Source: a virus (lineage: Duplodnaviria > Heunggongvirae > Uroviricota > Caudoviricetes). From it: a stretch of 15,157 bases of DNA. Location: IMG/VR virus record IMGVR_UViG_2648501466_000031, positions 1-15,157 of that record. One strand, written 5' to 3'. Positions 5,940-11,690 of this stretch are shown one piece after another (position 1 is the first letter of the stretch; every line of letters starts with the position of its first letter). A program made the position numbers and the translations under genes. The notes under the pieces are model-generated. The model did no database searches. It was not told the origin of the DNA and saw only the letters and a program-made list of their open reading frames with translations.

Positions 5940-6977
5940 TTAACGCTTATCCGCCACCAGTTTGAGCGCGTGTTCCAGCACGTTAATGTCAGCACCCGCT
6001 TTATGGGCATTTTCACTTAAATAACGCCGCCACTGCCGCGCGCCAGGAATACCCTGGAACAAACCCAGCATATGCCGGGTAATATGGCCGAGATACGTCC
6101 CCTGGCTGAGTTCACGCTCAATGTACGGATACATGGCGCGCACTACCGCCACCGGATCGGCATCGGTATCCGAGGAACCAAAGATCTCCCGGTCTACCGC
6201 CGCCAGAATACCCGGATTCTGATACGCCTCGCGCCCGACCATCACGCCATCCATATGTTGCAGGTGTGCTTTGGCCTCTTCCAGCGACTTGATACCACCG
6301 TTAATCGACATTGTCAGATGCGGAAAGTCACGCTTCAGTTGATACACACGCGGATAATCGAGCGGCGGGATTTCACGGTTTTCTTTCGGGCTTAACCCCG
6401 AAAGCCAGGCTTTACGTGCGTGGATGATAAACATCTCACACTCGCCTTTGCCGGAAACAGTGTTGATGAAATCGCAGAGAAATTCATAGCTGTCCTGGTC
6501 ATCGATGCCAATACGCGTTTTCACCGTCACTGGAATCGACACCACATCGCGCATCGCTTTCACACAGTCGGCAACCAGCTGCGCATTACCCATCAGACAC
6601 GCACCAAACATGCCGTTCTGCACCCGGTCAGACGGGCAGCCGACATTCAGGTTGATCTCATCATATCCACGCGCTTCTGCCAGCTTCGCACACTGTGCCA
6701 GCGCCGCCGGATCGCTACCGCCGAGTTGCAACGCTACCGGATGTTCTTCTTCACTGTACGCCAGGTAATCACCTTTACCGTGAATAATCGCCCCTGTGGT
6801 CACCATTTCGGTATACAGCAACGTATTGCGGGAAAGCAGACGCAAGAAATAGCGGCAATGTCTGTCCGTCCAGTCGAGCATAGGAGCAATGCTAAACCGA
6901 GAATTCCAGTAAACACCAGTTTTTTCAGGCATCACGCTGGTTTGATTAATTTTTTGTGTTTCATGATTATCGTGCAT
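5940..6977 (-). CDS. dusA: tRNA-dihydrouridine synthase A, 345 aa as drawn; 5' end probably supplied by the adjacent prophage
   Basis: [17 protein letters not shown]… and the Dus catalytic region ([15 protein letters not shown]); the first ~12 codons (6941-6977) are ~24% GC versus ~45-55% for the rest; no Shine-Dalgarno seen at either M1 or M16, so the start is uncertain. Confidence 0.88.
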
Positions 6978-7010
6978 TTTTGAACATTTCAGGCTATTTT
7001 TCTCGCGTTA

Positions 7011-7046
7011 GGTTCCCGCACAGGTTCCCACGTTTTATGGGAACCC
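7011..7046. promoter_or_regulatory. GGTTCCC repeat cluster in the int 5' region: direct copy 7011-7017 plus inverted repeat GGTTCCCA-N7-TGGGAACC (7024-7046)
   Basis: Read directly; sits 20-55 nt upstream of the int ATG (7066) in the dusA-int divergent region; candidate operator or recombinase/RDF binding sites. Confidence 0.35.
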
Positions 7047-7065
7047 GAAATAACGAGGTCGTGTA

Positions 7066-8163
7066 ATGGCATACTATAACATAGAGAAACGACTAAAATC
7101 CGATGGCACACCACGCTATCGCTGTAATGTGATTATCAAAGAAAAAGGTGTTATCACTTACAGGGAAAGTAAAACATTCCCTAAACATGCTCATGCCAAA
7201 ACATGGGGCACACAGAAAGTGATGGAATTAGATCTATATGGCATTCCATCATCAAATGCAGTTGACGGACTTACAGTCCGTGACTTACTACACAAATATT
7301 TAAATGACCCAAATGCCGGAGGTAAAGCAGGCCGTACTAAAAGATATGTGCTGGAACTGCTTATGGATAGTGACGTCTCCGCGCTCAAACTATCTGAACT
7401 GACAGAAAATGACGTAATTGAACATTGCAGGCTAAGAAACAACGCTGGTGCAGGTCCAGCTACAGTTAGCCACGATGTTAGTTATCTTGGCAGTGTTCTG
7501 GATGCTGCCAAACCTGTATATGGAATTAATTACACATCAAACCCAGCAAAAGCCGCTCGTCCATATCTACTTAAACTTGGTTTAATTGGTAAATCAAATC
7601 GTCGTAATCGTAGACCGGCATCTGATGAACTGGACATGCTCATTGAAGGTCTTCAACAACGATCTACACATAAATGCTCAAAAATTCCGTTCGTTGATAT
7701 CCTCAAATTTTCTGTGTGGTCATGTATGCGAATCGGTGAAGTATGCCGATTACGATGGGAGGATCTCGATCAGGAACAAAAATCCATACTCGTAAGAGAC
7801 AGGAAAGATCCACGTAAAAAGGAAGGCAACCATATGAAAGTAGCCTTGCTTGGGGAAGCCTGGGATATCGTCCAACGACAACCCAAAAAATCAGAATTCA
7901 TTTTTCCATATAACAGCACTTCTGTTACTGCGGGATTCCAGAGGGTAAGAAGCAAATTAGGTATTAAAGATCTGCGATACCATGATTTGCGTAGAGAAGG
8001 GGCAAGTCGCTTATTTGAGGCTGGTTTTAGTATTGAGGAAGTCGCCCAGGTTACAGGGCATCGTTCATTAAACGTGCTATGGCAGGTATATACCGAACTG
8101 TATCCGAAATCTTTACATAATCGTTTTGAAGAGCTCCAAAGGAGCAGAAATAAGGCCTCTTGA
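7066..8163 (+). CDS. int: Phage tyrosine integrase (site-specific recombinase), likely dusA-associated integrase type, 365 aa
   Basis: Catalytic signature: box I R (CMRIGEVCRLRWEDL), HDLRR (H-x-x-R), GHRS, and tyrosine in WQVYTEL; position directly abutting and divergent from the dusA 5' end. Confidence 0.88.
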   Translation: MAYYNIEKRLKSDGTPRYRCNVIIKEKGVITYRESKTFPKHAHAKTWGTQKVMELDLYGIPSSNAVDGLTVRDLLHKYLNDPNAGGKAGRTKRYVLELLMDSDVSALKLSELTENDVIEHCRLRNNAGAGPATVSHDVSYLGSVLDAAKPVYGINYTSNPAKAARPYLLKLGLIGKSNRRNRRPASDELDMLIEGLQQRSTHKCSKIPFVDILKFSVWSCMRIGEVCRLRWEDLDQEQKSILVRDRKDPRKKEGNHMKVALLGEAWDIVQRQPKKSEFIFPYNSTSVTAGFQRVRSKLGIKDLRYHDLRREGASRLFEAGFSIEEVAQVTGHRSLNVLWQVYTELYPKSLHNRFEELQRSRNKAS

Positions 8164-8211
8164 CACTGTTTATCTATACAGTTAAAAATAATACTGTATA
8201 CAAACACAGTA
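8164..8211 (+). promoter_or_regulatory. Two tandem LexA (SOS) boxes upstream of the dinI-like gene
   Basis: Box 1 at 8164-8183 CACTGTttatctatACAGTT; box 2 at 8192-8211 TACTGTatacaaacACAGTA (perfect CTGT-N8-ACAG with TA flanks); RBS AGAGGGA and ATG at 8225 follow. Confidence 0.75.
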
Positions 8212-8224
8212 TAGAGGGACTTTT

Positions 8225-8473
8225 ATGCGTATTGAAATCTGCATAGCCAAAGAAAAAATGACTAAAATGCCAACCGGTGCTGTGGATGCGTTAAAGGAAG
8301 AATTAACCCGACGCATCAGTAAACGTTATGACGATGTAGAGGTGATCGTAAAAGCCACCAGCAACGATGGCCTTTCTGTTACACGCACCGCAGATAAGGA
8401 TTCTGCAAAAACTTTTGTTCAGGAGACTCTGAAAGATACCTGGGAATCTGCTGACGAGTGGTTTGTTCACTAA
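8225..8473 (+). CDS. dinI: DinI-family DNA-damage-inducible protein (RecA modulator), 82 aa
   Basis: [11 protein letters not shown]…[16 protein letters not shown]…LSV…[17 protein letters not shown] aligns along its length with E. coli DinI (MRIEVTIAK…GAIDAL…LQETWESADDWFV). Confidence 0.88.
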
Positions 8474-8652
8474 TTAACACGTAAAATCGGTAACGGCTGG
8501 AAATCATTCAATACTCGCACTATCGAAAGTTCGCCAGCCAGCCGTGGCACGTTCTTGCATACGACGTGCTACGGTTTCATTTATCTCCCGAAACTCCATT
8601 TGGATTTATCCGGTGCGCCGTAAAACCCCGTCCTTCAGGGCGTGGAGGATGT

Positions 8653-8736
8653 CAACTGGACGCACTGGAGCTGGTCGATACTTCCGGTGCGCCAGATATT
8701 GAATGGCCTACGCCTCCGGCAGTTCAGGCCAGATGA
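8653..8736 (+). pseudogene. Relic 3' end of a second, convergent tail-fibre-assembly gene (tfa-prime); only the C-terminal ~25 codons are recognisable
   Basis: Plus-strand frame at 8653-8733 reads QLDALELVDTSGAPDIEWPTPPAVQAR then TGA (8734-8736), matching the conserved Tfa C-terminal motif (VDTSTAPDIEWP); the upstream frame degenerates, with a stop at 8491; overlaps the minus-strand tfa 3' end by 29 bp. Confidence 0.45.
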
Positions 8737-9298
8737 CATCCGGCGCGGTGCTGGTATCTGTTGCCTGCACCGCCTTAATGTAGCCAATCCAGGCAATCAG
8801 GCTGGCTTTGTCATCGCCACTGATAATGCCTAACTGCAGTTCCGTTTGCCACAGGCTGATTTTTGAATTTGCGGCGTTCAGAAGATTTGTTTTCTGTTGC
8901 TCGGCTTCGGCCACGTTCGCCGAGTGCTGTTTATCGCTATCTGTAGCCCATTTGTCATATGGCGTAGATGGTGCTGTGGTGGTGGTGCCTTCCGGGTATT
9001 CTCCCAACCGTGAAACTGTCACATGCTTTCCAGTTTCCGTGCTGTAAACGGTTTCGCCGCGATGGTCTGCAACGTATTCCCAACCGGTCAAATCAGCCGT
9101 CCGGCAAACAGCAAAGCCGTCCTTTTTGCTGATTGGCGCATCCACGCACGAATTGCCTGGAACACCAACGCCAACGGGAAGATATTCAACAGCTAAACCG
9201 ATATATTCACGCGTCACGCCATCATAATTATAAACGGTGATATATCCGTCTTCCGTGGCGAAACCGTTTTCATCTAATGAAATTTCTTTTGCGGTCAT
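8708..9298 (-). CDS. tfa: Tail fibre assembly protein (Tfa / Mu U-like chaperone), 196 aa
   Basis: C-terminus …IAWIGYIKAVQATDTSTAPDVIWPELPEA is typical of the lambda Tfa / Mu U family; start overlaps the stop of the upstream fibre gene (TAATG). Confidence 0.85.
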   Translation of the reverse strand: MTAKEISLDENGFATEDGYITVYNYDGVTREYIGLAVEYLPVGVGVPGNSCVDAPISKKDGFAVCRTADLTGWEYVADHRGETVYSTETGKHVTVSRLGEYPEGTTTTAPSTPYDKWATDSDKQHSANVAEAEQQKTNLLNAANSKISLWQTELQLGIISGDDKASLIAWIGYIKAVQATDTSTAPDVIWPELPEA

Positions 9299-10053
9299 TA
9301 TACTGCCCTTACAATGTAGTTGAATGCGAGGTTGCGCGGGCGAGTTTCAGCACCTGTTGAACCATTCGCCTTTAAGTAAACCCAACCAGAGCCATTAAAA
9401 GTGGTTGCATTAATCATATATTTAATCGGAATCATGTCAGAGTCAGGGGTATCGCCCAGCCTGTCCCTGTAAGCGGTATCTGAACTGTATGCCATCGCTA
9501 GATCATGAGTATGCTGCTGTACTGATTGGCTCTGACCAGTTAAAACAACGCGCCCACTATCAACCCCGCGCCCATCATCCCAGCCACGGATAAATTCACC
9601 GCGCAAATCAGGCAATTTTAACGCTGGATAAACTTTTGCCAGCTCCGGGTATTCTTCAGCAGAAAAAGGCGCACCGTTGCATTTAATCCAGCCTGTTGGC
9701 GGTGTGGCTGAAGGCCACGGAACAGGTACACCAACGGGTAACGCTGAGCCTTCTCCCAAACCAAGGTTTTCGAGAGCCGTTTGCACAGTGCCATCCGATT
9801 TGATATCGCCAAACGGATTCTTGCGGCTTAACAGCAGCGCACGAAGTGCGGTAAGCAGCTGGTCATGCCGCCCTTTCTCCAGGCTGGCACCGGAGGCCTC
9901 CACCACGCTACAAAGTTCTTCCTGCAACATGTCAAAGTAGTCATCATCCAGATCGGTGGCAGGTGTGCCGGTCTGGGGGTTACCACGGGTAAAACCGTTC
10001 TTACCCGCGCCGAACTTATCCTTCTGCGCGGTTTTCGTGTCTATACGATGCAT
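9298..10053 (-). CDS. Short tail fibre protein with phage tail-collar domain (Mu S-like), 251 aa
   Basis: N-terminal fibre-anchor region followed by a collar-type motif ([22 protein letters not shown]…[17 protein letters not shown]); positioned between the gp48-like gene and tfa. Confidence 0.78.
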
Positions 10054-10056
10054 GGA

Positions 10057-10641
10057 TTACTCCGGATATTTAAAAATTACGTAGGTATGCGAAGGGCAGA
10101 GTTTGTTAAGCACGCACTCGACAACGGTGTCGCCCCAGATACGCAGTGCGGAATCACAGGGATCGCCACATGTCATCCAGGTGGTGTTGGTGGCGGCTGG
10201 CATGTTGACCTGCCAGTAATACCGCCATTCCGGCGCATTCACAGCGTCAGTACAGGCCGATGAGCAGGTGAACGTGCTTTTGTCGTATCGCGTGATGGCG
10301 GCATCTGGTCTGCCCAGGGCAGCAAGCTGTGCAAGGTAAAAATCCTCATTGATGCCGCCCGCCAGATTAACCTTCGCATCCAGCCGTTGCTGACGCTGGC
10401 GAAGGGTCTGTGTCCCTGCGGGAATACATTCATCCGGCAGACCGCACAGACGCTCCCAGCGGTTTATCAGTTCAGTGGTGGTGCGCGGATCCAGCTCCCG
10501 CATCAGGGCATCCGCACGCTGATGAACACGGGTTAATGACGGTGCCGCACCTGCAATCGCCGGATCGCTGGCTGACCACGCCGGACCGGGCGGCAGCAGT
10601 GCCGACAACAGACGGATGTAATCATCGTTTGTCACGTCCAT
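10057..10641 (-). CDS. Mu gp48 / YmfQ-like baseplate-wedge tail protein (DUF2313 family), 194 aa
   Basis: N-terminus [22 protein letters not shown] resembles YmfQ/gp48-family proteins; position between baseplate J and the fibre gene. Confidence 0.75.
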
Positions 10642-11690
10642 GAAATCGTCCCCAGAACCGCCAGTTCATTTTTTGCAATGGAGATATTGTCCGCCGGTGC
10701 AAGCAACTGATGGCTGTATTCCCCGTTCGCACCGGAAATCGCTTCACTGATACGTGACACCTTCAGTTCTCCCTGCGGATAACCATCACGCAGCAGGAAC
10801 GAACGCAACTCCGCGGTGATGGCAGCCCGTATTTCCGGTGTGTCCGGCGTCACACGGATATGAAAATCCACCGTATGTGCCACCGGCCTGAACACATACA
10901 AATCAGAGCCTGCCACCGGGGCCAGTGGCTCGATATGTTGTCTTGCCGCCGTTTCCGTTGATTCTTCCGGAATGGGATTAATCAGGTCACTGCTGGCAAT
11001 CATCACACCGACAGTCCCCGTTCCCATCCAGTGTCGGTATGTCCATGCGCGGGTAATGCCGGGCACTTCTTTAGCCCAGACGACATAGTCCCCGTCAGCC
11101 CCGCCCTGAGGCGTCCAGTAATACCGCTCAATGACGCGGGCGCGCCACGTTTCCAGCTCTTCAGTATCAAATCCGCCTGTAAGGGTGTCAGCCACACCGG
11201 AAGACGGCAGACCATTCACCGGCGTGACCAGGATTAATGCCGTACCGTCGTCAGCGTTACCGACCGCGCCTGTAGTTGAGCAAGTGATCGGCACACGCAG
11301 GACACCACCGGAGCTGGTTGCATCGGCAGTTGCCGTGTACTGAACCAGGTCATCGCGCTGAATCACGCTCCCGGCAGTCACCTTCAGGCCATCGCTGACA
11401 CCTTCCCAGCGCATATACCCGCTGGCAGCCGTGGCCCCCTTGCGCGGACATCGTTTCATCGCAGCATGTCGCGCCAGCCAGGACTCATCGCACAAGTCAG
11501 GCAGCATGTTCATTGCCAGATAATCGATGTACCCGTAAACCGTATGCAGCGCCGCCGCATACACCTTTGCCCGCACGTCTTCATCCATGCGCCGGAGCGT
11601 GTCGCTGACGTCCAGCCAGGCGAATAAATCGTTACGGAGCATACTGATATTTTCTGCCAGCGTCGGGCGCTGAAATTCACTGTCCGCCAT
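10632..11690 (-). CDS. Baseplate J-like protein (Mu gp47 / P2 gpJ family), 352 aa
   Basis: Size, position and sequence character of Baseplate_J family proteins; overlaps neighbours by 10 and 14 nt (translational coupling). Confidence 0.8.

Follow-up and report, generated by a model that had tools for sequence, protein, structure and literature searches.

A probable scar of a decayed Pin/Gin-type invertible tail-fibre cassette, with an embedded 46-bp IS609 derivative, in a prophage integrated next to dusA

Programmed inversions of phage tail-fibre genes with adjacent tfa (tail fibre assembly) genes are well catalogued (PMC9881135). The G segment of Mu with Gin and the C segment of P1 with Cin share, more broadly, the invertible layout to which the locus described here is compared, and the P segment of e14 with Pin (pinE-stfE-tfaE-tfaP-stfP-ymfQ) has the same gene order, the same tail-to-tail tfa pair with a 29-bp overlap, the same YmfQ/Mu-gp48-type baseplate neighbour, and a 26-bp crossover site at the junction of the constant and variable parts of the fibre gene. 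Moreover, close relatives of the prophage examined here carry pinE and tfaE by PGAP name. Compared with e14 P, Mu G, and P1 C, the present locus retains a single crossover site, about 80% of its second tfa (hereafter tfa') is deleted, and both the invertase and the alternative fibre tip are gone. Decay of such invertible fibre cassettes is widespread among enterobacterial prophages, and Escherichia coli K-12 carries an equivalent: tfaS, beside yfdK in CPS-53 (KpLE1), likewise has no N-terminus and converges with a 29-bp overlap on an intact tfa, and the adjoining fibre gene likewise keeps a crossover site without an invertase. In K-12, however, it is the long-type gene that is truncated (291 bp remain) and the short-type one that is intact, whereas here the types are reversed and the truncated gene is reduced to 81 bp plus about 10 nt and interrupted by a miniature IS609. 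Phages HK97 and HK106 bear the same scar on the downstream side of tfa; positions 8480-8782 are 96.7% identical to HK97, including the invertase (pin) stub, the miniature IS609 (100%), and the relic, and the crossover site is likewise retained in the fibre gene of HK97. The context differs in that the HK97 scar adjoins sib/attP/int of a lambdoid siphovirus, with nothing annotated there, whereas the scar reported here adjoins dinI and int in a dusA prophage with a Mu-like baseplate. No description of the HK97 scar was found in the literature searched, the P2 tail-fibre (1992) and HK97/HK022 genome (2000) papers lying outside that search.

The DNA analyzed (the window; 15,157 nt, IMG/VR record IMGVR_UViG_2648501466_000031) contains the left end of a dusA-integrated prophage (Table 1). 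Near-identical loci occur in E. coli 104 and D53-1, where they are annotated in the order dnaB-qorA-pspG-dusA-int-dinI, and the minus strand beyond the fibre gene encodes a Mu-gp48/YmfQ-like protein and baseplate J. The interval between the dinI-like gene and the intact tfa is interpreted here as the composite scar of a decayed Pin/Gin-type invertible tail-fibre cassette, a reading to which a probability of roughly 0.9 is assigned. As a presumably non-functional fossil of a well-known system, with its tfa' remnant already annotated as a pseudogene by PGAP, the interval is of low interest in its own right; the 46-bp IS609 miniature within it is the only part that may merit attention by itself. 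Two LexA-box-like palindromes lie on the plus strand at 8164-8183 and 8192-8211 (CTG-N10-CAG at 8166-8181 and 8194-8209), where they overlap a promoter-like site upstream of the dinI-like gene, and they suggest that this gene may be under SOS control. On the minus strand at approximately 8470-8557, D53-1 and WP8-S18-CRE-02 (WP8) carry a PGAP annotation of a 'capsid protein' pseudogene fragment with a frameshift, which may be spurious.

Table 1. Features of the window in and around the interval between the dinI-like gene and tfa
Feature	Positions	Strand	Basis or remark
dusA	5940-6977	-	Pfam Dus match
Tyrosine integrase gene	7066-8163	+	next after dusA
dinI-like gene	8225-8473	+	Pfam DinI, 70.9 bits; annotated as DinI-like family protein in strain 104, D53-1, and JNU
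Spacer between dinI and the pin 3' end in intact relatives; not tfa-derived	8474-8542	.	identity to strain 104
Hairpin directly downstream of the pin stop codon	8543-8574	-	partial Rfam CssrB match, 32 bits
pin invertase stub	8577-8596	-	coordinate transfer from pinE of strain 104 (L002 4428-4439 = window 8577-8588)
Left piece of tfa' relic (approximately ...NL..DY codons, small indels)	8597-8609	+	alignment with five tfa' alleles
46-bp miniature IS609 (IS200/IS605 family), no tnpA or tnpB	8610-8655	+	matches to E. coli K-12 IS609 ends
tfa' relic, last 26 codons and stop of a short-type tail fibre assembly gene	8656-8736	+	Tfa identity, Pfam, PGAP
Intact long-type tfa	8708-9298	-	Pfam Caudo_TAP, 103 bits
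Tail fibre gene, 251 aa	9298-10053	-	Pfam Collar, 52 bits; translation
Orphan 26-bp invertase crossover site, TTCTCCCAAACCAAGGTTTTCGAGAG	9751-9776	+	20/20 match to inverted-repeat arms of intact cassettes (L001, L002)

The original prediction had identified the plus-strand frame ending at 8736, which reads ...GCQLDALELVDTSGAPDIEWPTPPAVQAR before its stop codon, as a Tfa C-terminus, and this identification holds. The translation of the relic (LDALELVDTSGAPDIEWPTPPAVQAR, then stop) is identical at 25 of 26 residues (8656-8733) to the C-termini of intact Tfa proteins of 139-147 aa from JNU, strain 104, and wlxctx60, with tblastn E values of about 1e-12 to 1e-16. The 26 residues alone also score above the Pfam Caudo_TAP (PF02413) cut-off (23.2 bits vs. 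22.1; E 8.4e-5), matching the last 21 positions of the profile (111-131 of 131). Chance similarity to Tfa is ruled out by this identity, the tblastn E values, and the Pfam score. Further, PGAP marks the same 81 bp as a tfa pseudogene, 'incomplete, missing N-terminus', in D53-1, CDE6306, WP8, S51, and PM7. The rest of a Caudo_TAP reading frame is absent: the 26 contiguous codons, which close a 56-codon ORF (8566-8736), are preceded by the miniature IS609 and the pin stub. The minus-strand tfa ends in ...DTSTAPDVIWPELPEA and its stop codon at 8708; the two genes therefore overlap tail-to-tail by 29 bp (8708-8736), and the coordinates agree with the overlap originally described. A tail-to-tail overlap of the same 29 bp exists in every intact cassette as well as in K-12 tfaS/yfdK. 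Since the final 29 bp of the relic double as the 3' end of the live tfa, they have stayed conserved. The relic itself is presumably without function. The intact Tfa of the window is 97.5% identical to that of a P2-like prophage with an intact cassette; relative to this homologue, from strain wlxctx60, it is five residues (DGEKW) shorter.

The relic is, however, much shorter than the interval from 8474 that was first assigned to it, because 8474-8596 belongs to the 3' end of a lost invertase gene and its downstream flank and 8610-8655 is an IS609 derivative. Tfa-derived sequence in the interval amounts to 8656-8736 and about 10-13 nt at 8597-8609. The latter emerged when the window, with the IS removed, was aligned with five tfa' alleles (GGATT(T)ATCTGGACGC); tfa' homology then extends leftward as GGATT(T)AT joined to CTGGACGC, that is, ...LDY joined to LDA....

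That the relic is the second, convergent tfa of a Gin/Pin/Cin-type invertible host-range cassette, as was proposed from the layout, is borne out by related prophages, among which strain 104, JNU, and wlxctx60 carry an intact cassette with its invertase. Strain 104 has the same dusA prophage (97.7% identical over 7000-8588 and 98.3% over 9750-11000), and between dinI and the fibre gene it encodes pinE (minus strand), a 172-aa fibre tip (plus), tfaE (plus), a short tfa (minus), and a gp53-like fibre (minus). JNU and the P2-like prophage of wlxctx60 are in the opposite state, with the invertase (minus), a gp53-like tip (plus), a short tfa (plus), a long tfa (minus), and a collar-type fibre (minus), such that the relatives are polymorphic for orientation. 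Positions 8656-9775 of the window are 97.6% identical to the wlxctx60 segment, and the JNU/wlxctx60 arrangement is the presumed direct ancestral state of the window. The dinI-like gene had been said to sit where the invertase and alternative fibre tip would be; this part does not stand, since dinI is also present in the intact relatives, just outside the cassette, and the deletion lies between dinI and tfa. The module common to HK97 and the other copies begins at 8480/8481, inside the spacer between dinI and pin.

The absence of an invertase and of an alternative fibre tip was correctly predicted: tblastn searches of the whole 15-kb window with PinE, a second invertase, and two alternative tips returned nothing at E<1e-3. 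Where an intact cassette has two tail-to-tail sets of tip and tfa, the window has one complete set (8708-10053) and a 26-codon stub. Of the adjacent serine invertase gene, 12-20 nt of the 3' end are left. Positions 8400-8588 are 100% identical to strain 104, reaching 12 nt into the 3' end of pinE, and the minus strand of 8577-8588 is therefore the G-D-K-stop of pin. While the TGA stop and these last three codons are certain, similarity is degraded from there to about 8596, as judged from alignments with the pin 3' ends of strain 104 and of strain EcE.CRE.COL (L005), and the pin/tfa' junction, which carries small indels, lies somewhere within about 8589-8600.

Intact cassettes are bracketed by the inverted repeats CTTCTCCCAAACCAAGGTTT and AAACGTTGGTTTGGGAGAAG, which resemble the crossover sites of Gin, Cin, Pin, and Hin. 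The search for such sites suggested alongside the original prediction was productive in that one perfect site survives in the fibre gene of the window, where it encodes ...ALENLGLGE... at the boundary between a constant N-terminal part and a variable Collar-domain tip, a boundary that is also mosaic among relatives. No second site was detected in the window at up to 3 mismatches (a single match, with 0 expected by chance), whereas intact relatives have two inverted 26-bp sites bracketing the segment. With one crossover site and no invertase, the fibre gene would therefore be locked, with the Collar-type tip and long Tfa expressed; from its genes and sites, the switch is predicted to permit no inversion and the host range of this prophage to be fixed rather than switchable.

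Between the pin stub and the relic, 67 bp of the scar match neither pin nor tfa. A query spanning 8575-8665 was searched against E. coli genomes. Matches were obtained in about 4900 of 5426 genomes, over 8605-8646 only, and the K-12 match is an end of IS609 in the ydcL-tnpA-insQ-ydcO locus. Positions 8605-8642 match the left end of K-12 IS609 at 37 of 38 nt, 8629-8655 match its right end at 27 of 27 nt, and the hairpin CGTCC-TTCA-GGGCG is common to both ends; 8610-8655 is therefore a 46-bp fusion of IS609 ends, consisting of the 5' part of the left end, the common hairpin, and the 3' part of the right end terminating in TCAA. These matches also bear on an 11-bp direct repeat, TCCGGTGCGCC, which occurs exactly twice in the window (8609-8619 and 8683-8693), encodes SGAP in two different frames as originally reported, and had been taken to suggest that two tfa 3' fragments, each with SGAP, were stacked by repeated partial duplications or insertions of tfa ends. 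The repeat is exact, yet its first copy lies inside the IS609 left end and is found in K-12 IS609 itself, and is therefore not a tfa fragment. Moreover, the 46-bp element occurs elsewhere with unrelated flanks, 8610-8655 contains no Tfa protein match beyond the SGAP of the 11-mer, and when the window is simulated with a first-order Markov model, roughly 23% of the runs contain at least one direct repeat of at least 11 nt within 100 nt. Stacking of tfa fragments is thus refuted by the matches to the left and right ends of IS609 and is hardly credible any longer. In D53-1 (L003), the same G-to-A change is found in both 11-mers (equivalent to window positions 8612 and 8686; alignment columns 78 and 153). 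D53-1 differs from the window by only 4 substitutions over 210 nt; the paired change could be a coincidence, templated correction between short repeats, or an assembly artefact.

The cleavage sites of IS609 are TTAT on the left and TCAA on the right (PMC6906374). In all six loci inspected, which have unrelated flanks, the 46-bp element is preceded by TTAT (8606-8609 in the window) and ends in TCAA. It thus shares with IS609 and with palindrome-associated transposable elements (PATEs) the same ends, a subterminal hairpin homologous to the reference element, insertion 3' of TTAT with TCAA at the right end, and no visible target duplication. It differs from them in that it is 46 bp long, its left and right hairpins are merged into one, and it has no tnpA, tnpB, or omega-RNA scaffold. 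Encoding no TnpA (Y1 transposase) in its 46 bp, against 1748 bp for the K-12 copy, the element would at best be non-autonomous. The identical 46 bp, again between TTAT and a terminal TCAA, were found next to nleD, on the haemolysin plasmid pUMNK88_Hly, in a phage-plasmid beside a terminase gene, and 42 bp upstream of stxA1a, and a 51-bp query was matched at ≥99% identity in at least 53 records. Rather than debris, the element may be a mobile, non-autonomous miniature IS609, a single-hairpin unit moved in trans by IS609 TnpA, that marks and perhaps triggered the final, fibre-locking deletion; this is put forward tentatively, as somewhat less probable than its negation. Alternatively, such short copies may arise when full copies collapse. 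If the miniature were mobile, the sites colonized by it would range from HK97 and phage-plasmids to a haemolysin plasmid, effector islands, and the stretch 42 bp upstream of stxA1a, and the paired change in D53-1 would hint at templated correction between an IS end and a tfa relic. No description of a 46-bp IS609 miniature was found in the literature searched.

A copy with one base different is present in E. coli O157:H7 FRIK944 (L017 1506-1551), where it occupies the interval from the Q antiterminator gene to stx1, with the start codon of stxA1a 42 bp further downstream. The 391-bp stretch around this copy is matched over at least 80% of its length in 345 of 5426 E. coli genomes, at full length and ≥98.5% identity in the rows sampled. 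No empty version and no version with a full-length IS was seen at the stx1 site. A search for empty or full-length IS609 versions at two sites of the miniature other than that in the window found none. The DNA of 8600-8660 folds no better than shuffled sequence (z = 0.13), and Rfam searches gave sub-threshold matches only, namely CssrB (32 bits; gathering score 76) and HgcC (E 0.78). The second concerns 8626-8655 of the plus strand, where the IS609 right-end hairpin and GAGGATGTCAA weakly resemble the 3' end of the archaeal HgcC RNA; the likeness is not significant, and it fits, weakly, a conserved right-end or omega-RNA-like motif of the IS200/IS605 family.

From the intact relatives and the junctions of the scar, an order of events can be proposed. 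The ancestor would have carried dinI, pin (minus strand), a crossover site, an alternative tip (plus), the short tfa' (plus), the long tfa (minus), a fibre tip (minus), a second crossover site, and the constant part of the fibre gene. An illegitimate deletion of approximately 1.4-1.6 kb, possibly in two nested steps, would then have stripped the cassette of its alternative tip, of the pin-proximal crossover site, of almost the whole pin gene, and of the first ~117 tfa' codons. What survives is a handful of final pin codons with the probable pin terminator hairpin, and the last ~29 codons of tfa' (about 90 nt), a remnant within which the 46-bp IS609 derivative follows a TTAT. It is also conceivable that the deletion was caused not by random illegitimate recombination but by a transposon (IS609 in tfa' promoting adjacent loss) or by the invertase (Pin acting on pseudo-sites). 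On its right side the deletion stops about 10-13 nt from the left end of IS609, the miniature at this site has been seen only in the deleted form, and the junction sequence at 8583-8594, ATCTCCCGAAAC, resembles a crossover half-site at 9 of 12 positions. Half-site matches of this quality are, however, at chance level (10 found vs. 12 expected), on which ground a crossover-like pseudo-site at the junction was rejected. Further, the IS200/IS605 family is not known to produce deletions next to its insertions. The argW prophage of EcE.CRE.COL, additionally, presents an IS-free state of decay with other junctions, in which 105 bp of pin are joined to 123 bp of tfa' with the same flanks and the same SGAP allele; such deletions therefore happen without IS609. 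Causation by IS609 or Pin is, on balance, unlikely, and illegitimate deletion is preferred. The EcE.CRE.COL remnant could represent either a previous step in this decay or a separate case. When a chimeric 310-nt query was searched against 5426 complete E. coli genomes, no intact tfa' with IS609 inserted at this TTAT was found, the best matches all being without the 46 bp.

The hairpin at 8543-8574 is probably the terminator of pin. Its sub-threshold Rfam match is to the 3' hairpin of the sRNA CssrB, and between the allele groups of the scar-copy alignment it exhibits a compensatory change of a T-A to a C-G pair, although a simple scan called no T-tract terminator there. Given its position next to the pin stop codon, the CssrB match, and the pair change, CssrB may be a 3' fragment of pin mRNA. 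A scan of 8100-8900 for terminators and promoters found nothing in the scar beyond what shuffled sequences give, the sole terminator-like match (8740-8754, plus strand) being inside tfa.

Such hairpins raise the question of whether the scar has been kept for a function, either as a terminator or 3' UTR (pin and IS609 hairpins) that insulates the tail-fibre operon from dinI and int, or as a linker for homologous exchange of tfa and fibre tips. The compensatory change would be in keeping with this, as would the match of the hairpin, below threshold, to the 3' terminus of an sRNA family described from Shigella, the 94-98% identity of 8481-8782 in at least five unrelated prophage contexts and two viable phages, and the sharp mosaic boundaries, one at 8782 and the other at the crossover site (about 9750-9775). 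On the other hand, the hairpin has no detected T-tract, the region of the IS hairpin folds no better than shuffled sequence, and most E. coli tfa pairs do without the scar, which is carried by 7 of 5426 genomes as against 1793 with a longer tfa'. Recent horizontal spread explains the conservation equally well. A retained function is considered improbable, and the scar is taken to be a remnant of cassette decay that has since been disseminated.

The spread of this remnant is seen in the 302 bp of 8481-8782, for which all copies found show 94-98% identity and have the same junctions and an identical miniature IS609. In HK97 and HK106 the scar directly follows sib/attP/int in a lambdoid phage context; among complete E. 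coli genomes it occurs in 7 of 5426, representing at least five prophage contexts. Five of these seven genomes were inspected, GSH8M-2 (with length and coordinates identical to those of WP8-S18-CRE-02) and FJ_Ec_21 being left out. The scar is located at dusA in D53-1, as in the window, beside pphA in CDE6306, at argW/intS in S51, at att-lambda (bioA-ybhB) in PM7, and next to another integrase in WP8-S18-CRE-02. Since all copies have identical junctions, a single old event is indicated; the scar would have arisen once and then travelled with tfa between unrelated phages by recombination in the conserved tfa 3' ends. Its unique junctions therefore make it a tracer for horizontal movement of the tfa module among at least five unrelated phage types, including HK97. 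Among the carriers, identity drops abruptly at 8782 and again at the crossover site (about 9750-9775), and the tfa body and fibre tip between these points differ from carrier to carrier; the conserved tfa 3' ends and the crossover site therefore act as seams of modular exchange, at which host-range modules are swapped. Between these breakpoints the window is 97.6% identical to the P2-like prophage, and outside of them it is 96-98% identical to its dusA-prophage relatives, whose own tfa and tip show only about 70% similarity. In WP8-S18-CRE-02 (L012 1893-3223), approximately 1 kb with a gene for a LEM-3-like GIY-YIG nuclease is inserted at the hairpin, with window positions 8552-8578 duplicated on both sides of the insert.
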